64,000 nt of DNA from Clostridia bacterium (GTDB lineage: Bacteria; Bacillota; Clostridia; Christensenellales; Pumilibacteraceae). Position numbers and translations under genes: made by a program. The DNA lies in NCBI GenBank assembly GCA_013316045.1, contig WSNJ01000002.1:743-64742 (forward strand), in the 5' to 3' direction. Positions 1-13,421 of the stretch are shown here, one piece after another (positions within the stretch are counted from its first letter, which is position 1; each line of letters begins with the position of its first letter). Under the pieces are notes generated by a model, which worked only from the letters and a program-made list of their open reading frames with translations, searched no databases and was not told the DNA's origin.

Positions 1-1
1 T

Positions 2-367
2 ATAATACATAATTTATCGCCAAAAGCAAAAACAATAGCCATAACATTAGAGGACACCACACATATAATTAAAGACTTTACACATTGGTGCATTTGGAAT
101 ATTGCGGCTGATAATAGAATTGAAAAAGGTATTCCAAAGGGAAAAATTGTGCCGTCGTTAGGATACGCCATACAAGGATTTGCTTACGGTTTGCACCGCT
201 ATGCGGGACCAAAACCGCCCAAAGGAAAAATGCATATCTATCGTTTTACTGTTTATTCGCTTGACTGCACAATCGAATTAAGTGCAAATAAAAGCAAAAA
301 AGCCTTTCTAAAAATAGCCCATAATCACATATTGCAAAAAGGCTCTATCTTGGGCGAATTTGAATAG
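2..367 (+). CDS. PEBP (YbhB/YbcL) family protein, 5' end cut by window edge
   Basis: The frame is open from nt 2. The translation ...FTHWCIWNIAADN...YAGPKPPKGKMHIYRFTVYSLD carries the bacterial phosphatidylethanolamine-binding-protein signature (GP.PP...H.Y.F.vY.L). Confidence 0.75.
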   Translation: MIHNLSPKAKTIAITLEDTTHIIKDFTHWCIWNIAADNRIEKGIPKGKIVPSLGYAIQGFAYGLHRYAGPKPPKGKMHIYRFTVYSLDCTIELSANKSKKAFLKIAHNHILQKGSILGEFE

Positions 368-375
368 GCGGGAAT

Positions 376-555
376 ATGGACGAAAACAAAACAATAAAAG
401 CGTCGTATTTTTACGCTTGCTGTCCGAATTGTAAAGCCGTTCTCATTCAAGCACAAAACGGTTTAGAGGGCTATATAAAATGTCCGAAATGCGAAAAATA
501 CATACACGTTACAATCAATAACGGAATTATAAGTACAAATATTAAGAACGCCTAA
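376..555 (+). CDS. small zinc-ribbon protein (59 aa)
   Basis: ATG at 376, TAA at 553-555, below the ORF-track cutoff. It has two Cys pairs (CCPNC ... CPKC) and is followed directly by an intrinsic terminator. Confidence 0.45.
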   Translation: MDENKTIKASYFYACCPNCKAVLIQAQNGLEGYIKCPKCEKYIHVTINNGIISTNIKNA

Positions 556-571
556 AACGGGCGTTCTTTTT
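544..571 (+). terminator. intrinsic terminator
   Basis: AAGAACGCC (544-552) pairs with GGCGTTCTT (560-568) over 9 bp, with a 7-nt loop, and runs into a T-tract. Confidence 0.7.
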
Positions 572-721
572 CTATAAAATAAGTGATAATCTGACAAAGC
601 CTTTTATTTTTGCCGCTGTTAGAAATGTTATACTCCGAACGGCGGATTTTATATTTTTATGCATAAATACCGCAGAATATTTTAATCTGTTTTCGAGCCA
701 GATTCAGCATACAAGAAAGTG

Positions 722-774
722 CCGAAACGGAGCAATACCGCCTTAATAGGGTTTGCTTTCGTTCGGTCTTTTTT
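722..774 (+). terminator. terminator-like hairpin with no upstream CDS
   Basis: CCGAAACGGAGCAA (722-735) pairs with TTGCTTTCGTTCGG (753-766) over ~13 bp with two bulges, followed by TCTTTTTT. Confidence 0.4.
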
Positions 775-785
775 CATTTATGGGC

Positions 786-821
786 TATTGCACCCCGTCG
801 GCGTATTGCACGCTGTCGGGG
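786..821 (+). repeat. two tandem 18-nt iteron-like repeats
   Basis: TATTGCACCCCGTCGGCG (786-803) and TATTGCACGCTGTCGGGG (804-821) match at 15/18 positions. The second unit runs into the 5' arm of the 811-854 hairpin. Confidence 0.6.
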
Positions 822-854
822 CTTTTCTATATACGGCGAAAACCGCCGACAGCG
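811..854 (+). other. long imperfect hairpin with loop TATATACGGC
   Basis: 17-nt arms CGCTGTCGGGGCTTTTC (811-827) and GAAAACCGCCGACAGCG (838-854) pair at 15/17 positions. The 10-nt loop at 828-837 contains TATATAC. Confidence 0.55.
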
Positions 855-970
855 ATTTTTTAACAAAAAAATCAAAATCTGAGGGTTTTCAAAATGCAAA
901 CAATTAAAAAAATTTTCAAAAAAAACCGAAACTTTTACCCTCTGCCGTGCTTATAGGTGGAGGTTTTTAT

Positions 971-1375
971 ATGCAAACTATCAAATATACATTTGCGGAC
1001 GGCACTACAAATGAGGTCGAGGTTACGGAAGATATATATTTGATACACTTGGAATTATTACAACAAGAAAAGCGCAACCATTGGAAAGAAACAAGGCGGC
1101 ATACCTCGCTATACTACTTTACCGATTTGGGAATAGATTTTGAGGACAAGCGCACGGAAAGCCCGCTTGATTTATACATACGAAAAGAGAATATCGCAAG
1201 CGTAAGAAAAGCAATGTTATGCCTTACGGACAAGCGGCGCGAACTCATACATAAAGCATTTTTCGAGGAAAAGACATTCCGCGCTATCGCAAGAGAAAAA
1301 GGGTTATCGAAATCGGCAATATCGCAACAAATGAAAACGGTGTACAAGCATTTGCGGAAACATTTGGGGGCGTAG
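971..1375 (+). CDS. sigma-70 region-4-like HTH protein (134 aa)
   Basis: SD GGTGGAGG lies 7 nt before ATG 971. The C-terminus LTDKRRELIHKAFFEEKTFRAIAREKGLSKSAISQQMKTVYKHLRKHL resembles sigma-70 region 4.2 / LuxR-type HTH, as seen in small mobile-element regulators. Confidence 0.6.
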   Translation: MQTIKYTFADGTTNEVEVTEDIYLIHLELLQQEKRNHWKETRRHTSLYYFTDLGIDFEDKRTESPLDLYIRKENIASVRKAMLCLTDKRRELIHKAFFEEKTFRAIAREKGLSKSAISQQMKTVYKHLRKHLGA

Positions 1376-1378
1376 GCT

Positions 1379-1630
1379 ATGGGAAAAGAATTGTATCAGG
1401 TTGTTGCATATATCGCGTTACGCAATAAAGACGGCTCGCCTATGATAAACGTACCCTTGTATGTCAAGGTATCGGAAACAAACAAAAGCGGTATGACGGA
1501 AGCACAAGAAAGCGTTATGCACCGCATATCGGCACTTATGATAAAGCGCAACGAAAAGCAGTTAAGCGATTATTTTGCAAACGCAACGGCAACGTGCGCG
1601 GGCGGCTTGCCGCCCGCGCGTGGCGTATAG
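1379..1630 (+). CDS. hypothetical protein (83 aa)
   Basis: ATG lies 3 nt after the preceding stop. No recognisable motif. The last ~17 codons are formed by the hexamer repeats and the GC hairpin, and the stop codon TAG is the first three bases of the origin nonamer. Confidence 0.4.
   Translation: MGKELYQVVAYIALRNKDGSPMINVPLYVKVSETNKSGMTEAQESVMHRISALMIKRNEKQLSDYFANATATCAGGLPPARGV
1577..1594 (+). repeat. three tandem hexamers (iteron candidates)
   Basis: GCAAAC-GCAACG-GCAACG lies 26 nt upstream of the origin stem-loop. Confidence 0.5.
1596..1619 (+). other. perfect 10-bp GC hairpin abutting the origin stem-loop
   Basis: GCGCGGGCGG (1596-1605), loop CTTG, CCGCCCGCGC (1610-1619). Confidence 0.7.
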
Positions 1631-1644
1631 TATTACCACGCCAC
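1620..1644 (+). other. putative rolling-circle (nick-site) origin: stem-loop with TAGTATTAC
   Basis: GTGGCGT (1620-1626) pairs perfectly with ACGCCAC (1638-1644). The 11-nt loop is A-TAGTATTAC-C, with the nonamer at 1628-1636. It lies 48 nt upstream of the Rep ATG. Confidence 0.8.
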
Positions 1645-1692
1645 TATGTCATATTGTAACGTGTTGGCGGCATTTATAGGGAGTTTTTTATT

Positions 1693-2730
1693 ATGGACGA
1701 AAACAAGGTTAAAATAGATTTGTCGGTTACAGACGAAACAAACGAAAAGCCGAAAAAGAACAAGCAGGCGCGCGATTGGTGCTTTACCGTAAATAACCCT
1801 GTACAAACGGAACAAGAATTTTTGGAGTATTTGAAAACGGTGTCCGATTTGCGGTATGCGGTATTCCAACGTGAACGCGCTCCCGAAACGGGAACGGAAC
1901 ATTATCAAGGGTATTTTGAGTTCACGCAACCCAAATGGTTTACTACCATTAAAAAATACCTATCTAAAAAGACGATAGGCGTTGACGCGCATATAGAACA
2001 ACGCCGTGCCAAACGAACGCAAGCCCGCCTATATTGTATGGACGAGGAAACGAGAATTAGTTCTACTTACTACGAATACGGCGAGTTCATAGAGGACGGC
2101 GAACGTACCGATTTAACCGATATAATGCGCGACATAGAAAACGACGTGAGTTTTTACGACCTTTCCAAAAAGCACGGCAACCGCTTTATACGGGTTATGA
2201 AATGGGCAAAAGAATACAGACAAGCCTATTTGGAAAATAAGTACAAACGGCAATTCCGTAAAATGCAGGTATATTATATTTACGGCTCTGCGGGTTGCGG
2301 AAAGACAAGTTACGTTTTCGGTAAGCACGGCTATGACGACGTTTACAGAACGACAAATTATGAGTTCGGCTGGATAGACGATTACAACGGCGAAAAGGTA
2401 TTGTTTCTTGACGAGTTTCGCAGTTCGTTCAAAATCTCTGAAATACTGGACTACTTGGACGGGCAACCTATACGAATACGAGGGCGACACTATAACCGCG
2501 TTGCTTGCTATGATACGGTTTACATTGTTTCAAATATACCGCTTACGGAGCAATACACCAAAATACAACAGTCCGAGCCTACAACGTGGGCGGCGTTCTT
2601 ACGGCGTATTACAGCGGTATATAATTTCGATATAAGCAAAGAAACGCCCGTAAGCAAGCATACGGGTAAATTGAAAGAAAAGGCTATAACTTTAATACCG
2701 CTTGACGATGACAGCGAAAGTCCGTTTTAG
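1693..2730 (+). CDS. rep: CRESS/circovirus-type replication initiator: HUH endonuclease + SF3 helicase
   Basis: Motif I CFTVNNP. Motif II HYQGY. Motif III region AHIEQRRAKRTQARLYCMDEE. Walker A GSAGCGKT. Walker B VLFLDEF. Motif C IVSN. Confidence 0.9.
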   Translation: MDENKVKIDLSVTDETNEKPKKNKQARDWCFTVNNPVQTEQEFLEYLKTVSDLRYAVFQRERAPETGTEHYQGYFEFTQPKWFTTIKKYLSKKTIGVDAHIEQRRAKRTQARLYCMDEETRISSTYYEYGEFIEDGERTDLTDIMRDIENDVSFYDLSKKHGNRFIRVMKWAKEYRQAYLENKYKRQFRKMQVYYIYGSAGCGKTSYVFGKHGYDDVYRTTNYEFGWIDDYNGEKVLFLDEFRSSFKISEILDYLDGQPIRIRGRHYNRVACYDTVYIVSNIPLTEQYTKIQQSEPTTWAAFLRRITAVYNFDISKETPVSKHTGKLKEKAITLIPLDDDSESPF

Positions 2731-2765
2731 CGGCTCGCTGGGTGGGTTCTCTTGGGTGGGCATAG

Positions 2766-2798
2766 AAAAAGCACAAGGCGTTTAACCTTGTGCTTTTT
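2766..2798 (+). terminator. intrinsic terminator after rep
   Basis: GCACAAGG (2771-2778) pairs with CCTTGTGC (2786-2793), flanked by an A-run and a T-run. Confidence 0.8.
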
Positions 2799-2867
2799 CC
2801 TTACCTTTCAGCGATAAAACCCGCATACCCGTTTACGAATATGTAGTTCGGGTTCAATCTCTGTCGT

Positions 2868-2883
2868 TTCTGGTGCACCAGAA
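2868..2883. repeat. perfect 16-bp palindrome
   Basis: TTCTGGTGCACCAGAA. Confidence 0.6.
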
Positions 2884-2890
2884 GAAAGAA

Positions 2891-2927
2891 GTCGTAATTT
2901 GTCGAAAGACAAATGCGGCTTTTTTTA
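2891..2927 (+). terminator. terminator-like hairpin with no upstream CDS
   Basis: ATTTGTC-GAAA-GACAAAT core extended by GTCG/GCGGC pairs, then TTTTTTT. Its 3' arm plus T-tract form the right copy of the flanking direct repeat. Confidence 0.5.
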
Positions 2928-3020
2928 TTTCCTTGCTGTTCGGGTTTAACTTTATTAGCATAGTGAACAACGTCTAATTTTATAAATGAAAAATTTTTTA
3001 TGTAAAATACTTAAAAATGC

Positions 3021-3051
3021 TTGCTTATTACGTCGCGTAATGAATTATAAT
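3021..3051 (+). promoter_or_regulatory. MerR-type promoter with 19-bp spacer and operator dyad
   Basis: TTGCTT (3021-3026), a 19-nt spacer containing ATTACG-tcg-CGTAAT (3027-3041), and TATAAT (3046-3051). Confidence 0.7.
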
Positions 3052-3069
3052 ATTTGAGAAGGGGTATTT

Positions 3070-3858
3070 ATGGCAAGATATAAAGTAATTCCACAAGGAT
3101 TTATGACGGTTGGCGAAGTCGCAAAGAAAATGGGCGTAACCGTTCGGGCGTTGCAATATTATGACCGCGAAGGGCTATTCAGTCCGTCTTGTATAAGCGA
3201 AGGCGGACGGCGTTTGTATAGCGATAAAGATGTTGTTATGTTGCATCAGATACTTACCCTTAAATCGTTAGGGTTTTCATTTAATGAAATTAAAAACCGT
3301 ATGACTTCTATCGATACGCCTCGGAAAGCAATAGTTGCATTGACAGAACAGAGCAATTCCATACAAACACAAATAAATACGCTTAATCAATCTTTACAAT
3401 CAATCGAACTATTGAAAAATGAAATAGAACAAATGCAAGTAGTTGACTTTTCAAAGTATGCCGATATTATTATCAACTTGCAAATGGGAAATAAGTATTA
3501 CGGTTTAATTAAACATTTTGACGATAATATGCTTGATTACTGTCATAAGAAATTCGATAAAGGTACGGGTGTTGCGTTTATAAATAAGTTCAACTTGATT
3601 GTCGGTAAAATAGAAAAATGCGTTGAAAACGGCATAGCACCCGAAAGCGAACAAGGACAACTTATTGCAAAAGAATTTTGGCAACTTATAACAGAGTTTA
3701 CGGGCGGCGATGTGAGTATGTTATCACAACTGATGAATTTCGGAAACGCACAAGCGGATAACGATATGCAAAATATACTGAATGCTTTTATCGAGCCTGC
3801 GCTGAACGTTTATTTCGGTAATTCGGGTATAAACCCTTTCGAGGCAAAAAATGAATAA
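3070..3858 (+). CDS. MerR family transcriptional regulator
   Basis: The N-terminus MTVGEVAKKMGVTVRALQYYDREGLFSP is the MerR winged-HTH signature. A coiled-coil and an effector domain follow. Confidence 0.85.
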   Translation: MARYKVIPQGFMTVGEVAKKMGVTVRALQYYDREGLFSPSCISEGGRRLYSDKDVVMLHQILTLKSLGFSFNEIKNRMTSIDTPRKAIVALTEQSNSIQTQINTLNQSLQSIELLKNEIEQMQVVDFSKYADIIINLQMGNKYYGLIKHFDDNMLDYCHKKFDKGTGVAFINKFNLIVGKIEKCVENGIAPESEQGQLIAKEFWQLITEFTGGDVSMLSQLMNFGNAQADNDMQNILNAFIEPALNVYFGNSGINPFEAKNE

Positions 3859-4663
3859 TATAATCGAAGTCAATGAGTTAAAAAAGAGTTACGGCACTAA
3901 TACCGTATTGAAAGGAATAAATTTAACCGTACGCAAAGGAGAAATCTTTGCCTTGCTCGGCGTAAACGGTGCGGGCAAAACTACGGCTTTGGAATGTATC
4001 GAGGGCTTACGCGCATACGACGGCGGAAATATAACCGTAAACGGGAAAATCGGTATTCAATTACAATCGTCCGCCTTGCAAGCCTATATTAAACCTATGG
4101 AAGCGGTGAAACTGTTTGCGAATTGGCATAAAACCGTTCCCGATAAAGAGACGTTAAATTCTTTCGGAATACCCGAATTGTCCAAAAAGAAATATGCCGA
4201 TTTATCTACGGGGCAAAAACGCCGCTTACACCTTGCGCTTGCCCTTATAGGCAACCCCGATATTATTTTTCTTGACGAACCTACGGCGGGACTTGACGTA
4301 GAGGGGCGCGTATCGCTACACAAACAAATACGAGCATTAAAAACGCAAGGCAAAACAATTATTCTTGCAAGCCACGATATGGCGGAAGTTGAAGAATTAT
4401 GCGACAGAGTAGCGGTTTTACGTAACGGATATATTGCTTTTATCGGAACGGTTGACGAATTTACCGCTATGGGCGGCAAAAGGCACATTATACGCGTTAA
4501 AACAGCCTACGGGCAAAACGAATACGAAACGGAAAATATAACGGAAACTCTTTTTGCGCTATTATCGGAATGCAAGCAAAAAGGAATATCTATTTCCGAA
4601 ATTCAGACCGACAGAGTATCGCTTGAACAAAATTTTATAAACATTGTGAGGGGTGCGGAATAA
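3851..4663 (+). CDS. ABC transporter ATP-binding protein
   Basis: Walker A GVNGAGKTT, signature LSTGQKRRL, Walker B IIFLDEPTAGLD. It overlaps merR by 8 nt. Confidence 0.9.
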   Translation: MNNIIEVNELKKSYGTNTVLKGINLTVRKGEIFALLGVNGAGKTTALECIEGLRAYDGGNITVNGKIGIQLQSSALQAYIKPMEAVKLFANWHKTVPDKETLNSFGIPELSKKKYADLSTGQKRRLHLALALIGNPDIIFLDEPTAGLDVEGRVSLHKQIRALKTQGKTIILASHDMAEVEELCDRVAVLRNGYIAFIGTVDEFTAMGGKRHIIRVKTAYGQNEYETENITETLFALLSECKQKGISISEIQTDRVSLEQNFINIVRGAE

Positions 4664-5373
4664 TGAAGGCATTATTGTACGGAATCGTTTTGCAATTCAA
4701 GTTTGACATACGCAGTAAAGGTATGCTTATAACTTGCTATCTCGTGCCGCTTGTATTTTTCCTGTTTATGGGCGGAATTTTCACGTCTATTGACCCAAAC
4801 GCTACAAAAACTATTATCTCGTCAATGACGGTATTCACAATTATAATGAGCGCATTATTCGGCGTACCGCCCGCTGTTGCGGAAATCTACGGTACAGACG
4901 TTAAAAAGGTCTATAAAGCAAACGGCGCACCTATATGGTTTGGCGTTATATCGCAGTTTATTTCGTCTTTTATACATACGCTTATATGCTGTCTTATAGT
5001 TTTTGCACTTTCGCCATTAATTTTCAAAGCGGAATTGCCGTCTGATTTGATATGGTATTTTTTATCGCTTATAGCGTTGCTTGCGATAACTCTTGCTATC
5101 GGTTGTATTTTCGGACTTTTGATTAAGCAGCAGGCAAAATTGACAATGGTTGCAATGGCAATTTTCTTGCCGTCCACTATGCTGTCGGGTATTATGTTTT
5201 CCGCAGATATGTTGCCGCAGTTTATGCAATATATTGCCTATGCTTTCCCCGCCGCAATAGCATTTAAGGCAATGACGGGTTTTCGGGTTTGGCATTTACC
5301 CGTATTGTTCTGTATATTTATTTTACTTTGCGGCGTTATTGTTCTATTGTTAAAATTTAAGATTAAACGATAA
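4663..5373 (+). CDS. ABC-2 type transporter permease
   Basis: About 6 hydrophobic helices. ATGA start/stop overlap with the ATPase gene. Confidence 0.75.
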   Translation: MKALLYGIVLQFKFDIRSKGMLITCYLVPLVFFLFMGGIFTSIDPNATKTIISSMTVFTIIMSALFGVPPAVAEIYGTDVKKVYKANGAPIWFGVISQFISSFIHTLICCLIVFALSPLIFKAELPSDLIWYFLSLIALLAITLAIGCIFGLLIKQQAKLTMVAMAIFLPSTMLSGIMFSADMLPQFMQYIAYAFPAAIAFKAMTGFRVWHLPVLFCIFILLCGVIVLLLKFKIKR

Positions 5374-5404
5374 TTGACTTATGGTCGAAAGTATATCCGA
5401 GCAT

Positions 5405-5430
5405 AAAAGGGCGCAATATGCGCCTTTTTT
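5405..5430 (+). terminator. intrinsic terminator
   Basis: AAAAGGGCGC-aatat-GCGCCTTTTTT. Confidence 0.7.
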
Positions 5431-5475
5431 GTATAACCCGAATATTTTTCAATATTTCTTTTTCGCGTTTTTCGG

Positions 5476-5504
5476 TTGATTTTATGTTTTGAAAGTTGTA
5501 TACT
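5476..5504 (+). promoter_or_regulatory. sigma-70-like promoter of trkAH
   Basis: TTGATT, 17 nt, TATACT. A 15-bp palindrome CGGATATTATATCCG lies downstream at 5528-5542. Confidence 0.5.
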
Positions 5505-5562
5505 TATAAAGTTATTACTTAATCAGTCGGATATTATATCCGCAGAGAGTCGGAAAAAATTT

Positions 5563-6936
5563 ATGAGAATCATTGTAGTCGGTTGCGGCAAGATAGGAAA
5601 AACAATCATAGCGAACCTAATCAGAGAAAAGCACGAAGTGGTGGCGATAGACAGCAAACCGTCTATCGTTGCCGAAGTTTCTAATTTATTCGACGTTATG
5701 GCGATATGCGGAAACGGCGCCGAGTATGACAAGCTCGAAAAAGCGGAAGTAAACAAAGCGGACGTTTTCGTTGCGGTTACTAATTCCGACGAGTTGAATA
5801 TGCTTGCCTGTTTTGCGGCAAAGCGTATGGGAGCAAAGCATACGGTAGCGCGGATACGCAACGCGGGCAATAACGACGACAGCCTTGCTTTTATGCGTAA
5901 ACAGCTCGAACTGTCGGTTGCTATAAATCCCGAAAAACGCACGGCGCGCGCGATATACAATTTGCTGAAACTGTCGTCCGCGAGCAAAGTCGAAACGTTC
6001 GGAAACCACGGTTTCGAAATGATGGAGTTTACGTTGCGCGAGAGCTCCGCGTTAGACGGGCTGTCGCTTATAGACCTGAAAAAGAAATACAACAAGACGG
6101 CTTTTCTCGTCTGCGCGGTAGGGCGGGACGATAAAATGTTTATCCCCAAGGGCGATTTTACGTTGCGCGCGGGCGACAAAGTAGGCTTGATTATGTCGGA
6201 AGAAGATACGACTCCCGTTCTTAAAATGCTCGGCATAGCTCAAAAGCAAGTCCGTAACGTTATTGTACTCGGCGCGGGCAGAACTTCGTATTATCTGACT
6301 GAAATGCTCTTAAAGCACAGAATATCCGTCAAGATTATAGAGCGCGACAAAGCGCGTTGCGAAGAATTTTCCGAAAGATTTCCGCGCGCCGAAGTCGTAT
6401 GCGGCGACGGTATGAGCGGCGACTTGCTTGCCGAAGAAGGAATTTCCGAAGCGGACGCGTTGGTCGCACTTACGGGCAGGGACGAAGAAAACATACTCAT
6501 ATCTTTCTACGCTATGTCGCAGAGCGTTCCGAAAGTTGTAGCCAAGGTCAACCGCGGCGAGCAGTCGGCGCTTGCCGAAAAACTCGGTTTGGAGTGCATA
6601 GTATCGCCGCAGAAAACGGTTGCCGACATTCTCGTGCGTTACGCGCGCGCGTTGCAGATGTCGGTCGGCAGCGAAATGGAAAAGCTGTACAGCTTGATGA
6701 ACGGCAACGCCGAGGGGCTTGAATTTAACGTGTTGCCAGATTTTCCGTTCTGCGATATACCGCTCAAACGGCTCAGATTCAAGCCTGGTATTCTGTTGGC
6801 GGGCATTCTGCGCGGAAAAGAAAAGATTATCCCCGGCGGCGACGACGTGATAAAGAGCGGCGACAAAGTTATTCTTATTGCCTCCGATTGTATAGTATAC
6901 AGTTTAACCGAAGTTATCGAGGGGGAAAACGAATGA
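5563..6936 (+). CDS. trkA: Trk potassium uptake protein TrkA (two RCK/NAD-binding modules)
   Basis: MRIIVVGCGKIGK and a second VIVLGAGRTS Rossmann motif. The start was moved to ATG 5563 from the ORF-track 5476. Confidence 0.9.
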   Translation: MRIIVVGCGKIGKTIIANLIREKHEVVAIDSKPSIVAEVSNLFDVMAICGNGAEYDKLEKAEVNKADVFVAVTNSDELNMLACFAAKRMGAKHTVARIRNAGNNDDSLAFMRKQLELSVAINPEKRTARAIYNLLKLSSASKVETFGNHGFEMMEFTLRESSALDGLSLIDLKKKYNKTAFLVCAVGRDDKMFIPKGDFTLRAGDKVGLIMSEEDTTPVLKMLGIAQKQVRNVIVLGAGRTSYYLTEMLLKHRISVKIIERDKARCEEFSERFPRAEVVCGDGMSGDLLAEEGISEADALVALTGRDEENILISFYAMSQSVPKVVAKVNRGEQSALAEKLGLECIVSPQKTVADILVRYARALQMSVGSEMEKLYSLMNGNAEGLEFNVLPDFPFCDIPLKRLRFKPGILLAGILRGKEKIIPGGDDVIKSGDKVILIASDCIVYSLTEVIEGENE

Positions 6937-8381
6937 ATTACCGTATGATTTTTTATACGGTCGGCAAAGTGTTGCGTATGGAAAGCATAATACTTGTGCT
7001 TCCCGCGATAGTGTCGCTCATATACGGCGAATATTTCCCCGCGGCGTCGCTCATAGCCGGCGCGGCAGTCGCGCTCGTAGTCGGTTACGCGCTTCTGCTC
7101 TGCTTAAAGCCGAAAAATACAACTTTTTATGCGAAAGAAGGGCTTATAACCGTTACTCTCGCTTGGATTTTCATTTCGCTTATAGGCGCGTTGCCGTTTG
7201 TGATTTCGGGCGAGATTCCGTCGTATATCGACGCCGTTTTCGAAACGGTAAGCGGCTTTACGACAACGGGCGCGTCGATTTTGCGCGACGTTACGGTAAT
7301 GAGCAAAGGTTTGCTGTTTTGGAGAAGTTTTACTCATTGGGTCGGCGGTATGGGTATCTTGGTATTCGTTATCGCGCTTTCTCAGAAATCGCCCGACAGG
7401 TCGATGAATATTCTGCGCGCGGAAATGCCCGGACCTATCGTCGATAAGCTCGTGCCCAAAACGAGAGATACGGCTAAAATTCTTTATTTGATTTACGTTG
7501 TTTTCACGCTCGTGCTGATAATATTCCTGCTCTGCGGCGGTATGCCGCTTTTTGACAGCGTGGTGCACGCGTTCGGAACGGCGGGAACGGGCGGTTTCGG
7601 AATAAAAGCCGACAGTATAGCAAGTTACAGCCCGTATCTTCAATGGGTTATTGCGATTTTTATGCTGTTGTTCGGCATAAACTTTAACTTGTACTACCTG
7701 ATTTTAATCCGTAAGTTAAGGCTTGCGCTTTCGAGCGGAGAACTCAGAACGTATCTTATAATAGTTCTCGTAAGCGTCGGGGTGGTTTGTTACAGCATTT
7801 ATCCTATGTATCAAAACTTCGGCGAAGTTCTCAGACTTTCGGTTTTTCAGGTGTCGACGGTTATAACCACTACCGGTTACGCAACGGCGGACTTTGCGAG
7901 TTGGCCGACTTTGGCGCGCGCCGTTCTCGTTCTTTTGATGTTCTTCGGAGCCTGCGCCGGTTCGACCGCGGGCGGACTGAAAATCTCCCGAGTCGTCATA
8001 CTTTTCAAGAAAATCGGCAACGAGTTACGCAGAGCCGTGCACCCGCGCAGTGTAAGCGTAGTTAAGTTCGAGGGAAAAAAAGTAGAAGAAGACACGCTCA
8101 ACGGAGTAGGGTCGTATCTTGCCGTATACGCCGTATCGCTGTTGTGTATGTTCCTTTTGCTTAGCATAGAAACGCGGTTCGATTTTGAAACGAATTTTAC
8201 GGCGGTCGTAGCTTGTTTTAACAATATAGGTCCCGGAATGGGGCTTGTAGGACCTATGGGAAGCTATGCGGACTATTCGGTTTTTTCCAAGATAGTCCTG
8301 TCGTTCGGTATGTTGCTCGGTCGGCTCGAAATTTATCCGTTGCTTATAGCTTGCAACCCGCGGACTTGGATAAGAAGATAG
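6933..8381 (+). CDS. trkH: TrkH family potassium transporter
   Basis: Polytopic, with TrkH motifs SGFTTTGAS, GTAGTGGFG, TTTGYAT and AGSTAGGLK. ATGA overlap with trkA. Confidence 0.9.
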   Translation: MNYRMIFYTVGKVLRMESIILVLPAIVSLIYGEYFPAASLIAGAAVALVVGYALLLCLKPKNTTFYAKEGLITVTLAWIFISLIGALPFVISGEIPSYIDAVFETVSGFTTTGASILRDVTVMSKGLLFWRSFTHWVGGMGILVFVIALSQKSPDRSMNILRAEMPGPIVDKLVPKTRDTAKILYLIYVVFTLVLIIFLLCGGMPLFDSVVHAFGTAGTGGFGIKADSIASYSPYLQWVIAIFMLLFGINFNLYYLILIRKLRLALSSGELRTYLIIVLVSVGVVCYSIYPMYQNFGEVLRLSVFQVSTVITTTGYATADFASWPTLARAVLVLLMFFGACAGSTAGGLKISRVVILFKKIGNELRRAVHPRSVSVVKFEGKKVEEDTLNGVGSYLAVYAVSLLCMFLLLSIETRFDFETNFTAVVACFNNIGPGMGLVGPMGSYADYSVFSKIVLSFGMLLGRLEIYPLLIACNPRTWIRR

Positions 8382-8385
8382 AAGT

Positions 8386-9495
8386 ATGTTATATTCGTTA
8401 AGCGAAACTGCAAAGTGGTCGATAATACTCGCGGCGGTCGTCGTCGTAGCGACGGTTATTTTTTTGTTGCTCGCGGGATATAAGACGTTTTCTCGGATGT
8501 TCGGCATATATTCTAAACCTTACGTGATGCGCGGCAACAAGAGCAGGCAGAAAGCGGATAAAATAAAGTCCGACGCGCGTTCCGCGCCCGCGCTTGCCGA
8601 AGCGGAGAACGCGAAAAAACTGTTTTTCACAAACCGCATTTCCGGTTCGCCGTTTTATCTGCCCGACGATATGTGGGCGAAAAAGCCGCGCGAATATTCG
8701 CTCGGCTTTGAAAAATCGGAAATTTACGCGTACTTTTTCAGCGCGGACGATTTCTCCGAATGCCGCAAGTACTCGCAGGTTTCGGGGCAAGGCGCGGGGA
8801 TAGAGAGCGCAAAGAGCAACAGATTTGCGATTGTTCTGCACGGATACGACCAATGCGGACTCGATACCTATAAGATAGCTTACGAGTTTATGCGCCGCGG
8901 AATAAACGTAATTTCTCCGGACCTTACGGGGCACGGAAAGGATTCGGGAAAGTTCGTTTCTTACGGTTACCGCGACAGACTTTACGTGTTGAAATGGATA
9001 GATTTCATTATTTCCGAATGCGAAAACGCCGAGATTTATCTGTACGGCGTATCTATGGGCGCGGCGACCGCATTGTACACGCTGGGCGAAAGTCTGCCCG
9101 ATAACGTTAAGGCTTGCGTGAGCGACTGTTCGTTTGCGTCGATTTACGACGAATGCGTAAAACAGCTTAAAAAGCGCAAAAGAGTACCGACGTTTCCGAT
9201 TATGAACATCGTCGTTTTCTTCGGCAAAAAGCTGTTGAAATACAATGTGAAAAAAGTTTCCGTAAAAGCGGCGGCGGAGCGCAACGGAAAAGTTCCCGTG
9301 CTGTTTTTCCACGGCAAAGACGACAGGTTCGTAACTCCCGACCGAACGCAGACGCTGTACGACGCGTCGCGCGTGCGGAAACAAATCGTTCTTTACGACG
9401 GAACGCGCCACGCCGAATCGATGGTATTGAACTTTAACGACTATTGGGAAAACATAGACCGGTTTATTAAAGGAGAAGAAGAATGTTCAAAATAG
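8386..9495 (+). CDS. membrane-anchored alpha/beta hydrolase
   Basis: N-terminal TM helix. Nucleophile elbow GVSMGA. HG...D...H arrangement. Confidence 0.75.
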   Translation: MLYSLSETAKWSIILAAVVVVATVIFLLLAGYKTFSRMFGIYSKPYVMRGNKSRQKADKIKSDARSAPALAEAENAKKLFFTNRISGSPFYLPDDMWAKKPREYSLGFEKSEIYAYFFSADDFSECRKYSQVSGQGAGIESAKSNRFAIVLHGYDQCGLDTYKIAYEFMRRGINVISPDLTGHGKDSGKFVSYGYRDRLYVLKWIDFIISECENAEIYLYGVSMGAATALYTLGESLPDNVKACVSDCSFASIYDECVKQLKKRKRVPTFPIMNIVVFFGKKLLKYNVKKVSVKAAAERNGKVPVLFFHGKDDRFVTPDRTQTLYDASRVRKQIVLYDGTRHAESMVLNFNDYWENIDRFIKGEEECSK

Positions 9496-10319
9496 GTTGC
9501 CATTTGTCTATTTCCGACGGGTATCTCGCCGCGGCGAAACAGGCGAGCGCGTTAGGCGCGAATACGTTTCAGTATTTTTCGAGAAATCCGCGCGGCGGAA
9601 GCGCTCGCAAGGTCGACGAAAAGGATATAACGGCTTTCAACGAATATCTGAAAGAAAACAATTTCGGCAAGATTGTAGCTCACGCGCCGTATACGCTCAA
9701 CGCTTGCTCCGCCGAACCGCGCACGCGCGTATTTGCGCGCGAGTGTATGCAGGGCGACTTGGAAACGATGCGCAACTTCGACGGATTTTATTATAATTTT
9801 CACCCCGGTTCGCACACTGCTTTGACGGCGGACGAGGGTATCGGGTTGATAACGGCTCAGCTCAACGCCATACTTTCGACCGATTACAATACGACGGTTT
9901 TGCTCGAAACTATGTCGGGCAAGGGCAGTGAACTCGGTTATTCTTTCGAGCAGCTCAAAACGATAATCGACGGCGTGGAAAACAATAAAAATTTAGGCGT
10001 GCTTCTCGATACGTGTCATATTTATTCGGCGGGATACGATATAGTAAACGACCTTGACGGAACGCTCGAAAAGTTCGATTCCGTCGTGGGTATTGAAAGA
10101 CTGAAAGCTATTCACGTAAACGACAGTATGACCCCGTTCGACAGCAGAAAGGACAGGCACGAAAAACTCGGTAAAGGCACGATAGGATTGGACGCGATAG
10201 CGCGCATTATAAATCACGACAGCTTGAAAGACCTTGTTTTCATACTCGAAACGCCGAACGAACTCGACGGCTACAAGTACGAAATAGAACTGTTGAAATC
10301 GCTCAGAAACGACAAATAA
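9483..10319 (+). CDS. nfo: deoxyribonuclease IV (endonuclease IV)
   Basis: IGCHLS, HAPYTLN, FHPGSH, LLETMSGKGSELG, DTCHIYSAGYD, HVNDS, DRHEKLGKGTIG, ILETP. Confidence 0.9.
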   Translation: MFKIGCHLSISDGYLAAAKQASALGANTFQYFSRNPRGGSARKVDEKDITAFNEYLKENNFGKIVAHAPYTLNACSAEPRTRVFARECMQGDLETMRNFDGFYYNFHPGSHTALTADEGIGLITAQLNAILSTDYNTTVLLETMSGKGSELGYSFEQLKTIIDGVENNKNLGVLLDTCHIYSAGYDIVNDLDGTLEKFDSVVGIERLKAIHVNDSMTPFDSRKDRHEKLGKGTIGLDAIARIINHDSLKDLVFILETPNELDGYKYEIELLKSLRNDK

Positions 10320-11321: not shown

Positions 11322-12506
11322 TTGCGGTTGAAGAAATTCTTTGCGGCGGTTTTCGCGGCGGTTTCGCTGTTCTCGTGCTTTTCGTGCGCTGAGAACTACG
11401 AATACGAATATCTGGAAAAGGACTCCGCGGTGTTTTCGGGAGCGATGACGCTTTACGTAAAACTTCTCGGGCGGGACGCATCGTCGGCGTTTGAAGAAAT
11501 GAGTCTAACGCTTGAAAAGATAGGTTCGGAAATCTCGCTTACCGATAAGAATTCGGCGCTCTCGTACTTTAACGAAAAGGCGGAAGAAAACGAGAAAGTA
11601 AAAGTATCAAAAGAAACTTATAACCTTATTTCTCTTGCGCTCGGCTTCGAAAAGGAAACGGGCGGCGCGTTCTCGATAGGCGCGTTCAACCTGTCGGAGC
11701 TTTGGGGGCTTGACGTAGACGGCTATTCCGGCTACGACCCGTTTGAAGATATTCCCGTAAAAGGCGAACTGCCCGATTACGAAACGCAGGTTCTGTCCGC
11801 AAAAGCTCACTGCGATACTTCGCGCCTTATCCTGACGCAGGAAGCGGGCGAATGTTTTATCGAAAAGTCCGACGGCGAACTTAAAATAGATTTGGGCGGC
11901 ATTGCGAAAGGCTATTGCGCCGACTTATGCGTCGGTATAGCAAAACGGCATTCGCTTAAATCGGCTCTTATAAACATTTCGGGCAACATTGTGCTTTTGG
12001 GCGGATATTACGACGGCAGAAAGTTCGTCGATTGGGAAATATCGGTTTTACAGCCGCGACCCAAAGCCGCGCTCTACCGCGAAGAAGTTTGCGCGTTTGG
12101 TTCGGGCGGAGATATATCTATTGTAACGAGCGGAGATTACCGCAGGTATTACCGCCACGAAAGCGACTTACAGCTTTGCCACATAATAGACCCGATTAGC
12201 GGCTTGCCGACAGATATATCGCTCGGTGCGGACGGCAAAAGCTACGTGCAAAAGCCCGAAATCGTTTCTTCGGCGACGGTGCTTTGCGGTTCGTCCGCCG
12301 CGGCAGACGCATATTCCACCGCGCTGTGCGTTATGGGATTGGAGAACGCGGCAAGGTTTCTGCAAGAAAATAATGACGTTTGCGCCATAATATTCACCGA
12401 GCGCGGCGAAGCGCACGGCAGAATGTACGCGAGCGACGGTATAGAATTCATTAAGGAAGATACATACGGGGAGTTTCGCAAGTACGAAAAATACGCGCCC
12501 GCGTGA
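11322..12506 (+). CDS. apbE: FAD:protein FMN transferase (ApbE family) lipoprotein
   Basis: Lipobox LFSC. GGIAKGY and TSGDYRRYY motifs. TTG start. Confidence 0.85.
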   Translation: MRLKKFFAAVFAAVSLFSCFSCAENYEYEYLEKDSAVFSGAMTLYVKLLGRDASSAFEEMSLTLEKIGSEISLTDKNSALSYFNEKAEENEKVKVSKETYNLISLALGFEKETGGAFSIGAFNLSELWGLDVDGYSGYDPFEDIPVKGELPDYETQVLSAKAHCDTSRLILTQEAGECFIEKSDGELKIDLGGIAKGYCADLCVGIAKRHSLKSALINISGNIVLLGGYYDGRKFVDWEISVLQPRPKAALYREEVCAFGSGGDISIVTSGDYRRYYRHESDLQLCHIIDPISGLPTDISLGADGKSYVQKPEIVSSATVLCGSSAAADAYSTALCVMGLENAARFLQENNDVCAIIFTERGEAHGRMYASDGIEFIKEDTYGEFRKYEKYAPA

Positions 12507-12519
12507 GAGAAAAAGTTCT

Positions 12520-12912
12520 ATGGTCAACGAGAAAAAAATAGACGCCGTTAAGAGAGAAATTTCTCCGTTGAAACTTGCGGATATAATAGTTCTCACGGCG
12601 CTTATAATTCTTTCCGTGGTACTGCTCGTTACCGTGTACGGCAAAACGGGCGAAAAAGTAATAGTAACGTATTACGGAGTTTCCGAAGAATACGACTTGG
12701 GACAGGACAGGGAGATTGCAATAGAAGACAAATTAACCGTTTGTATCAGCGGCGGCGCGGTTTACGTAAAAGACGCGCAATGTCCCGATAAGATATGCCA
12801 GAACTCGGGCGCCGTGAAAAAAGTCAACGAAACGATAGTTTGCGCGCCTTTCGGCATAACGGTGCGCATAACGGACGGCAAGGGCGGCGGCAATAAGGTG
12901 GTTACGGGTTGA
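12520..12912 (+). CDS. NusG domain II-containing membrane protein
   Basis: One TM helix, then a beta-rich domain with CPDKIC...VCAP. This is the typical partner of the downstream Gx transporter. Confidence 0.65.
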   Translation: MVNEKKIDAVKREISPLKLADIIVLTALIILSVVLLVTVYGKTGEKVIVTYYGVSEEYDLGQDREIAIEDKLTVCISGGAVYVKDAQCPDKICQNSGAVKKVNETIVCAPFGITVRITDGKGGGNKVVTG

Positions 12913-13421
12913 TGAAAGTCGATACGAAACGCATAGCGCGGATTGCGTTTCTTACAGCCGTTGCGCTGATACTCTCGCTCGTCGAGAACGCATTTCCGCC
13001 GATTCTGTCGTTTGCTCCAGGGGTAAAGCTCGGACTTGCGAACGTAGTGTGCCTGATTGCGTTGATAATTTCGGGAATTACCGACGCTTACGCGATACTT
13101 CTTGCAAGATGCTTGCTTGCTTCGGTGTTCGGCGGCAATATATCCGCGCTTATGTATTCGGTTCCCGCTTCGCTTGTTTCGCTTACCGCAATGACGCTTA
13201 TGTATACGCTCTTAGTCCCGAAAATCGGACTTGTATCCGTTTCCGTAACGGGCGCGTGCGTATTCAATGCGGTTCAGCTGTGCGTCGCGTCGGCTGTCGT
13301 AAAAACGAACTTGCTATCGGTTTTGCCGCTTATGCTGTTTACAAGCATAATAGCGGGCGCGTTTACGGGACTTGTTGCCTGGTGCGTTGTCAGATACCTG
13401 CCCAAAAACGTATATATGTAA
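12912..13421 (+). CDS. Gx transporter family protein (heptaprenyl-diphosphate-synthase component I-like)
   Basis: A ~170-aa polytopic protein with LENAFPPILSFAPGVKLGLANVV. TGATG overlap with the upstream gene. Confidence 0.65.
   Translation: MKVDTKRIARIAFLTAVALILSLVENAFPPILSFAPGVKLGLANVVCLIALIISGITDAYAILLARCLLASVFGGNISALMYSVPASLVSLTAMTLMYTLLVPKIGLVSVSVTGACVFNAVQLCVASAVVKTNLLSVLPLMLFTSIIAGAFTGLVAWCVVRYLPKNVYM

Follow-up and report, generated by a model that had tools for sequence, protein, structure and literature searches.

A conserved stem-loop with a circovirus-type nonanucleotide, very likely a rolling-circle origin, adjoins the Rep gene of a small integrated element in gut Clostridia

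The stretch of DNA analyzed here, referred to below as the window, comprises 64,000 nucleotides of contig WSNJ01000002.1 from a Clostridia bacterium (assembly GCA_013316045.1). Near its left end it carries a gene for a replication initiator protein (Rep) resembling those of CRESS-DNA viruses (whose circular genomes of single-stranded DNA encode a Rep) and, just upstream of this gene, a stem-loop that displays the nonanucleotide TAGTATTAC. Our analysis confirmed that this origin hairpin is real and not a product of chance. Very likely, the hairpin is where rolling-circle replication starts, as a plus-strand (double-strand) origin with a predicted Rep nick at TAGTATT^AC, and together with Rep it forms the module by which an integrated bacterial element is replicated.

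On direct reading of the window, the arms GTGGCGT (1620-1626) and ACGCCAC (1638-1644) form seven perfect pairs around an 11-nt loop, ATAGTATTACC, at 1627-1637, which holds the nonamer at 1628-1636, and the ATG of the Rep gene follows at 1693, 48 nt beyond the stem. The stem, loop, nonamer coordinates and distance to Rep that had been given in a first-pass annotation of this DNA were thus all reproduced. Bases 1-3 of the nonamer (TAG, 1628-1630) double as the stop codon of an upstream 83-aa open reading frame (ORF). The nonamer is present as a single copy when both strands of the window are scanned, and on its own it is not significant: 0.33 copies are expected per window, and at least one copy was found in 27 of 100 shuffles. 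By our own estimate, however, the joint chance of the nonamer lying within a 7-bp inverted repeat no more than 100 nt upstream of a Viral_Rep gene is about 1e-7, where a perfect 7-bp flanking inverted repeat has a chance of about 6e-5 per register and the window contains only one Viral_Rep gene. Folding of the region as single-stranded DNA (ssDNA) returned the origin hairpin together with an adjoining GC-rich hairpin at 1596-1619 (z = -3.3). The joint estimate, and the recurrence of the layout in homologous and distant loci, bear out the earlier claim that such an architecture beside a matching Rep would not arise by chance, and conservation provides a stronger argument for this than the window statistics.

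There are 474 database relatives of the Rep and, counting one genome per GTDB species, 449 Rep loci. The hosts of these loci are nearly all Christensenellaceae, Borkfalkiaceae or unclassified Clostridia represented by metagenome-assembled genomes (MAGs) from animal and human guts, with one cultured isolate, Anaerocaecibacter muris CLA-AA-M11 (locus L051), among the carriers. Locus sequences were examined for 80 of the 449. In a first scan, 49 of the 62 bacterial loci with enough upstream sequence had, just 5′ of rep, a NANTATTAC loop closed by a perfect stem. Among the 13 loci that failed, four proved to have the hairpin after all (L083, L084, L088 and L092), two were cut by contig ends, four were rearranged and two were without a stem, so that after inspection the hairpin was present 5′ of rep in about 53 of 60 assessable bacterial loci. 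In the last of the 13, L035 (1135-1143), the stem is intact, but the nonamer carries a C9>T change and reads TAGTATTAT. The same structure was seen in 54 of 71 distant relatives with 26-43% Rep identity, a set made up of IMG/VR contigs plus loci L219 and L221.

The loop is fixed across lineages as NAGTATTAC, TAATATTAC or TATTATTAC, with the individual forms TAGTATTAC, AAGTATTAC and CAGTATTAC, while the left arm takes 16 different sequences among 17 lineages, each perfectly paired with its own partner. Cognate arms formed perfect stems with a mean length of 8.6 bp, compared to 3.8 bp for arms combined across lineages; these values were obtained with our own script anchored on TATTAC, because a MAFFT alignment of the origin regions lost the stem register. 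Compensatory change in the stem around a constant loop is the pattern of a CRESS origin, and it was this co-variation in homologous loci that the first-pass annotation had proposed as a test, which the hairpin passed. Furthermore, the entire 25-nt hairpin is identical in the roughly 30 closest loci, although synonymous divergence (dS) in their rep genes amounts to 0.36-0.97.

Rep-binding iterons flank the stem-loops of circoviruses, nanoviruses and geminiviruses. In every lineage of the bacterial loci, two to three copies of a tandem 8-nt repeat lie 2-4 nt 3′ of the stem, and the sequence of the repeat is lineage-specific (TGTNNNNN). Examples from other lineages are GTAACACTGTAACAC, GTCACACTGTCACAC, TGTATCATTGTATC, TGTGATATTGTGAT, TGTACCCGTGTACCC, TGTACCATTGTACCA, TGTATTCT (three copies), CTGTCGCAGTCGCA and TCGCACAATCGCACAA; such 8-mers carry GTAACAC, GTCACAC, GTATC, GTGAT, GTACCC, GTACCA, GTATTCT (three times), GTCGCA and CGCACAA. 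Iterated sites beside the stem are a further hallmark of CRESS origins, and this feature, which the earlier annotation lacked, strengthens its case for an origin. From their position and lineage specificity, the repeats are presumed to be a candidate Rep-binding site.

The GC-rich hairpin that abuts the origin stem is kept with compensatory arms in many lineages (for instance CACACGGGCGGC.., GGGCATGGCGGC.. and GCCCGC..) and is absent in some distant ones. By analogy with rolling-circle plasmids and the intergenic regions of Ff phages, it could be a candidate complementary-strand origin, or a packaging, termination or other ssDNA signal. A scan of positions 1-3200 against Rfam (E<=1) gave no match.

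Rearranged loci bear on where the origin is cut. The nick is predicted between T1634 and A1635 (nonamer positions 7/8), an inference from the biochemistry of circoviruses, nanoviruses and geminiviruses. In L044 (~1860-1900), L061 (~2000-2040) and L067 (~8960-9000), foreign sequence has taken the place of the 5′ arm and of the nonamer's initial bases, leaving a junction (..TT|ACC..) whose breakpoint lies at the predicted nick or no more than 2-3 nt from it, while the 3′ arm, the iterons and rep are kept. Since the three loci have a common upstream partner, they represent one or two events rather than three, and they lend the predicted nick position indirect support. In L064 (~8920-8950), the 5′ origin arm is gone.

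The Rep itself matches Pfam Viral_Rep (PF02407; 6e-17; score 62 bits, cut-off 26) as well as PF00910 (RNA_helicase/superfamily 3 (SF3) helicase; score 21.8 bits, cut-off 21.5). Its HUH nuclease domain contains motif I (CFTVNNP), motif II (HYQG), motif III (Y114-CMD), the metal-binding residue E61 and the motif II residues H70 and Q72, and its SF3 helicase domain contains Walker A (GSAGCGKT), Walker B (LFLDEF) and motif C (VSN). Motifs I and II, Glu61/His70/Gln72, Tyr114, both Walker motifs and motif C are kept across 21 diverse homologues. The closest solved structures are the full-length Rep of porcine circovirus 2 (PCV2; 7lar, 1e-19 over residues 26-310) and the M-Rep nuclease of faba bean necrotic yellows virus (FBNYV; 6h8o, 3e-11). 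An AlphaFold (AF2) model built from 21 sequences had a mean pLDDT of 83.8, and a Foldseek search with this model matched the redondovirus Rep 9pqq (1.5e-13), FBNYV 6h8o (TM 0.91) and the PCV2 ATPase 8xms (TM 0.85). The Rep is therefore a full HUH-SF3 protein of the circovirus/nanovirus type, and its ratio of nonsynonymous to synonymous divergence (dN/dS) of 0.05-0.07, compared to copies at dS 0.36-0.97, reveals strong purifying selection. Together with the conservation, the co-varying stems and the iterons, these findings support the proposal of a CRESS-type origin that serves the adjacent Rep.

The C-terminus of the Rep (2689-2730) consists of an acidic run followed by xPF (DDDSESPF; in relatives DDDSDLPF, DDDNLPF or EDGDLPF), and such a tail is found in 64 of 92 full-length Rep homologues (from the set P0001-P0120). 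The C-terminal tip of the bacterial single-stranded DNA-binding protein (SSB), DDDIPF or DDDLPF, docks replication and repair proteins, and by analogy the SSB-tip-like tail of Rep may recruit host factors. In BLASTP comparisons with the representatives that Kazlauskas et al. 2019 list in their supplement (PMC6668415), the Rep was closest to pCRESS2 (40% identity, 1e-64, and 37%, 6e-58), followed by pCRESS3 (31% and 29%), GasCSV (30%) and pCRESS1 (27%); grouped in this way by BLASTP identity, it is pCRESS2-like.

The features of the window that belong to the element are collected in Table 1. The element is about 6.1 kb long and is found whole in longer loci (L017, ~4053-10190), with window 1-2880 corresponding to its right part. 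It consists, in order, of a large serine recombinase gene on the opposite strand, cargo, a gene for a sigma-70 region-4-like protein, the 83-aa ORF, the GC-rich hairpin, the origin, Rep and an attachment (att) end. Window 1-2880 aligns at 94% to L017 7306-10190 and also to L021, L022 and L026, and the elements at these four loci begin about 3.25 kb further left, at the serine recombinase gene. As judged from this alignment, about 3.25 kb of the element precedes window position 1, and the window opens inside the cargo block. The recombinase comprises Resolvase, Recombinase and Zn_ribbon_recom domains, matches a PHROG integrase at 1e-107, and is intact and 94-97% conserved.

Table 1. Coordinates of the origin, Rep and other parts of the integrated element within the window
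Feature	Position	Strand	Description
Variable cargo part	1..903	+	PEBP/PBP 3′ part, zinc-ribbon-like ORF, non-coding stretch
PEBP/PBP-family gene, 3′ part	149-367 (ORF)	+	Pfam PBP 2e-9
Zinc-ribbon-like ORF, 59 aa	376-555	+	
Non-coding stretch of cargo part	556-903	+	
Sigma-70 region-4-like DNA-binding protein, 142 aa	947..1375	+	Pfam Sigma70_r4 7e-8
83-aa ORF	1379..1630	+	Truncated remnant; last ~11 codons cross both hairpins
GC-rich hairpin GCGCGGGCGG-CTTG-CCGCCCGCGC	1596..1619	+	Perfect, 10-11 bp, abuts origin stem
Origin stem-loop	1620..1644	+	7-bp stem, loop A-TAGTATTAC-C
Iteron-like tandem 8-mers TGTCATAT / TGTAACGT	1648..1663	+	Start 4 nt after stem
Rep, 345 aa	1693..2730	+	HUH nuclease and SF3 helicase; ribosome-binding site GGGAG at 1680-1684
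Post-rep hairpin, 14 bp	2765..2799	+	Terminator-like, weak T tract
Right attachment end	2851..2880	+	tRNA-3′-end-like arm GGTTCAATCTCTGTCGTTTC and palindromic core TGGTGCACCA (2871-2880)

The cargo differs between elements, consisting of TetR, a metallo-beta-lactamase (MBL)-fold protein and PEBP, or of TetR and DUF6796, among other sets. The conserved backbone corresponds to window 904-2880, of which elements with other cargo (the L011 type) share only 904-2877. The MBL-fold protein (L005 1696-2421, just upstream of the window start) has a weak precomputed Pfam match to Anti-Pycsar_Apyc1, and its gene may have an anti-defence function. Positions 709-908 are non-coding and structured, with direct repeats at 786-801 and 804-819 and inverted repeats at 811-827 and 838-854, and L040 and L050 have a stretch of 90-93% identity to this region upstream of their sigma-like gene. 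We considered whether 713-908 might act in cis in all copies, for example as a complementary-strand origin, and rejected this since the stretch occurs only in same-cargo copies and in L036, L040 and L050, and so is not part of a universal backbone. The sigma-like protein, which additionally matches KORA (9e-6) and PHROG 11138 (7e-22), is presumed to be a regulator of the element.

The borders of the element were defined by comparing copies. An identical Rep is found on other contigs beside different host genes, with ComEC there and MerR in the window, and similarity ends at window 2876 for the identical-Rep copy and at 2876-2887 across all related loci. The attP site rebuilt from both ends of the element (L017 ~4047-4080 and 10140-10190) is an imperfect palindrome centred on TGGTGCACCA whose junction reads ...CTGTCGTTTCTGGTGCACCAAAGACGATAAAGG..., and each of its arms mimics the T-arm, acceptor strand and CCA of a tRNA. 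Each copy has one junction that directly abuts a real tRNA gene at its CCA end, and the palindrome as its other junction; the target tRNAs are many and different, and the element is found in either orientation. A tRNA scan of the window found none, because the window holds the palindrome junction (2871-2880), while the tRNA junction should lie about 3.25 kb upstream of position 1. In human-gut contigs, paired right ends 4770-4776 nt apart, each against a different tRNA gene, were observed at L181 (7161 and 11931), L191, L206 and L214, which places an element of about 4.7 kb between neighbouring tRNA genes. No capsid-like gene was found in the ~6.1-kb element, and all copies found were integrated, which sets it apart from the Cressdnaviricota; it is not a eukaryotic-type CRESS virus. 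A scan of IMG/VR recovered one close relative only, which was partial, and did not recover the window's element type.

The closest Reps outside the window's element type, with 78-86% identity and the same origin, are found at about 20 loci of a sister lineage that encodes a Zot/pI-like ATPase. The right end of this lineage carries the same sigma-like gene at the same position, GC-rich hairpin, origin and Rep; part of the copies carry a serine recombinase at the left end, and for at least some of them the insertion site is a tRNA. The GC-rich hairpin is near-identical between the mini-elements and some of these Zot-encoding relatives (L040, L042, L055 and L058). The sister ATPases match the Zot/pI-like ATPase of more distant loci by BLASTP (4e-17), and in profile searches they hit only the Zot-domain structure 2r2a (3.6e-4), while the large adsorption-like protein of the sister lineage (724 aa) is a homologue of the large protein of the distant loci (39% identity, 5e-114). 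In those distant loci, the Reps P0097 and P0102 adjoin a Zot/pI-like ATPase (31.8 and 30.8 bits with Pfam Zot, cut-off 20.3; 2e-17 with PHROG Zot-like; weak match to M13 protein I) and are accompanied by small ORFs in series, by a coiled-coil/Flg_new protein of 740 aa and by a helix-turn-helix repressor, and the P0102 locus also encodes a tyrosine integrase. One member of the sister lineage, the full-length L051 2100-9000 in A. muris CLA-AA-M11, encodes a Rep that is 81% identical to that of the window and has the origin TGGCGTAAA-TAGTATTACC-TTTACGCCA. Most proteins of its structural block were without a Pfam or PHROG match, and a hydropathy scan of L051 revealed no obvious small coat protein. 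The label 'inovirus-like' for the sister lineage is thus based on its Zot/pI homologue, on gene order and on published precedents. At another Zot-encoding locus, L219, a second rolling-circle initiator gene (Rep_1, PF01446, 530 aa; 11545-13137) is located downstream of the Viral_Rep gene, at a distance of 600 nt, and is followed by another block of small phage-like ORFs.

By tblastn, the sister elements have the pI/Zot-like ATPase that marks inovirus prophages, whereas the window's element type has none, and no morphogenesis genes (Zot, coat or adsorption) were found in it. The 83-aa ORF, however, retains a trace of such a gene block: its residues 1-67 match L051 2869-3114 (56%) and L040 (69%), which represent the N-terminus of a 175-aa ORF whose gene follows the sigma-like gene in Zot-encoding relatives (L051 2869-3396; L040 2443-2643). 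The homologue of the 83-aa ORF in L033 ends at 72 aa, before the hairpins. The 83-aa ORF is therefore the truncated first gene of the structural block, with the morphogenesis block gone, and these sequence comparisons identify the window's element as an internal-deletion derivative of a Zot/pI-encoding prophage that has kept integration, regulation and replication and has gained cargo. Both types, mini and full-length, co-reside in two MAGs (MGBC135946 and MGBC105190) among the 80 loci examined.

In the mechanism that we propose for the origin, the large serine recombinase would excise the element beside the tRNA CCA end as a double-stranded DNA (dsDNA) circle, and Rep would bind the tandem iterons 3′ of the stem. 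The stem-loop would then be extruded, and Tyr114 would cut the T1634/A1635 bond and become joined to the 5′ end, as in circovirus and nanovirus enzymology. The SF3 helicase domain, with the host replisome, would displace the + strand, after which Rep would cut and rejoin the regenerated hairpin and release circular ssDNA. This circle would return to dsDNA, perhaps primed at the GC-rich hairpin, or be exported, and the product may serve plasmid-like maintenance, helper-phage packaging or conjugative mobilisation. We tentatively raise the possibility that the element, which would keep only recombinase, regulator, origin and Rep, lives as a satellite ('mini-inovirus') on filamentous prophages with a CRESS Rep in gut Christensenellales/Clostridia, such that + strand circles from the TAGTATTAC hairpin would be packaged and exported by a co-resident Zot-encoding helper and would spread the cargo; we regard this extension as doubtful.

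Several observations weigh against a functional rolling-circle origin of this kind. The Lys of motif III (YxxK) in CRESS Reps is replaced by Asp in the window (2032-2043); the motif reads YCMD in 42 close homologues and in another 4 it reads YCME, while more distant relatives keep K; in a structural survey, the motif III Lys/His was called conserved and a likely general base (PMC8780604). The window's own iteron pair is imperfect (TGTCATAT compared to TGTAACGT), and no complementary-strand origin was identified in the element. In addition, a promoter scan detected no sigma-70-type promoter between the hairpin and rep, so that rep is probably read through from upstream. Finally, the attP-junction pattern had 0 matches in metagenome contigs, whereas all 46 right ends found with a control pattern were integrated (46/46); this means that no excised form was seen, and is not proof that excision fails to occur.

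Of the other explanations, one assigns the nick a different use. The hairpin could be an origin of transfer and Rep a non-canonical relaxase, in which case the element would be an integrative and mobilizable element (IME) using a co-resident conjugation pore, a reading that is compatible with replication from the same site. Streptococcal IMEs that combine a PF02407 protein with an integrase have indeed been classed as the relaxase superfamily Rel_PF02407 (PMC5357655, PMC5704250), and the element described here has an integrase and a nick-type site, no transfer genes of its own, and near-identical copies in many different MAG species. We nevertheless consider this reading unlikely, because the TcpA/FtsK coupling protein present in all described Rel_PF02407 IMEs was not found in this element, while the iterons, the SF3 helicase and the descent from Zot-encoding prophages favour a replication or phage module; the PF02407 family is, moreover, not known to have relaxase activity. 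The loss of the morphogenesis genes, the truncation of one ORF and the lack of any excised form in metagenome contigs could also be taken to mean that the element is a decaying prophage remnant with a functionless hairpin and rep. Decay is hard to reconcile with the purifying selection on Rep, a hairpin that is invariant at dS up to ~1, the intact recombinase, and the occurrence of the same element at many different tRNA sites with different cargo sets, and we judge it improbable.

The intergenic position of the stem-loop, at the end of an ORF and beside a second, GC-rich hairpin, would also suit a structure that merely terminates or attenuates transcription ahead of rep, with a coincidental nonamer. 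However, the stem is not followed by a T tract and was not called in a terminator scan, termination has no need of a 9-nt loop that is invariant over Reps of 26-96% identity, and iterons directly follow the stem; this reading is thus highly improbable, and as a sole explanation it was rejected on the missing T tract, the invariant loop and the iterons. There is hardly any prospect that a eukaryotic CRESS-virus contig was fused to bacterial DNA during assembly, for which only the unexpected likeness to circovirus and nanovirus Reps could be cited. The same junctions are found in dozens of independent assemblies and in the cultured isolate (Anaerocaecibacter muris, L051), and the element ends precisely in att sites at tRNA genes, with flanking genes of bacterial type. 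Contamination or a chimera was rejected since the independent assemblies contradict it.

The first-pass annotation considered such an origin unexpected inside a Clostridia chromosome, but its setting is not anomalous. Viral-like Reps on integrated elements of bacteria are a known kind, as are PF02407 IMEs and inoviruses with a superfamily 3 helicase (S3H) Rep: bacterial 'pCRESS' Reps are on record for integrated plasmids (PMC6668415), PF02407 proteins for IMEs (PMC5357655), and S3H Reps for inoviruses, as iPF_00203 (Roux et al. 2019, PMC6813254) and in ctbe30/ctbc27 (Tisza et al. 2020, PMC7000223), the S3H domain of the iPF_00203 Rep having been described as 'typical of eukaryotic ssDNA viruses' (PMC6813254). 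By contrast, we came across no description of the origin in the main or supplementary text of PMC6668415, and in our literature search we did not find the nonamer or origin described in bacterial PF02407 elements, which is not proof of absence. The conserved anatomy of nonamer, stem and iterons, the cargo-carrying mini-element, the tRNA-mimicking palindromic attP and the SSB-tip-like tail of Rep appear to be undescribed so far.

The descent of CRESS viruses from bacterial replicons has so far been argued from the Rep protein alone. Across over 100 loci, bacterial as well as phage-like, the origin matches the design of the eukaryotic viruses down to the nonanucleotide, with a stem-loop, a NAGTATTAC loop and iterons, and the evolutionary link between bacteria and CRESS viruses is thereby extended to the whole replication module. 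The origin design of circoviruses and nanoviruses is thus also in use by bacterial elements related to filamentous phages. If the satellite reading were true, the cargo (TetR, MBL-fold/Apyc1-like, PEBP and others) would be spread between species, and the complete nonamer, stem and iteron design would have been present in filamentous-phage replicons before eukaryotic CRESS viruses arose. The findings supply defined substrates on which these Reps can be tried, for instance as HUH-tag enzymes, and on which the unusual YCMD active site can be studied. They also define a widespread small cargo-carrying element of gut Clostridia that targets tRNA CCA ends by way of its tRNA-mimicking palindromic attP and resembles a stripped-down filamentous prophage. 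The element is thereby a candidate for a new route along which genes are transferred among gut microbes.

Compared to the origins of circoviruses and nanoviruses (PCV1/PCV2 and FBNYV) and, more widely, geminiviruses, the bacterial origin has the same short stem and a 10-12-nt loop with (T/A)AGTATTAC or, in some relatives, TAATATTAC or TATTATTAC; it also shares the iterons by the 3′ arm and the location on the rep-sense strand just 5′ of rep. The Reps have in common an HUQ-type motif II, the catalytic Tyr and the SF3 helicase. Unlike circoviruses and nanoviruses, the window's element has a bacterial host, is integrated into the chromosome by a serine recombinase and has no capsid gene, and it differs further in the GC-rich hairpin by the 5′ arm, the Asp in place of the motif III Lys and the acidic ...PF tail. 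RS1 of CTXphi and the Ff miniphages are satellite or defective filamentous phages, and the element is like them in that Rep, origin, integration and a regulator are kept while morphogenesis genes are missing, as in an internal deletion of a full phage; unlike them, it carries unrelated cargo, and no packaging signal was identified in it. Among the S3H-Rep inoviruses, it is the sister lineage that is alike in the Zot/pI-like ATPase, the 724-aa adsorption-like protein and the usual inovirus gene order, whereas the window's element differs from them in having cargo instead of Zot, coat and adsorption genes. The Rel_PF02407 IMEs (Coluzzi et al. 2017, PMC5357655) share the combination of an integrase and a PF02407 protein in a small chromosomal element of Firmicutes, but they have a TcpA coupling protein that the window's element is without. 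The pCRESS2 integrated plasmids (PMC6668415) have a Rep of the same group and a Clostridia host and are likewise integrated, often at tRNA genes. The published pCRESS2 elements carry FtsK-like and SSB genes, neither of which was found in the window's element, and have tyrosine integrases, as do most published Rep-encoding integrated elements, whereas integration of the window's element is the task of a serine recombinase.

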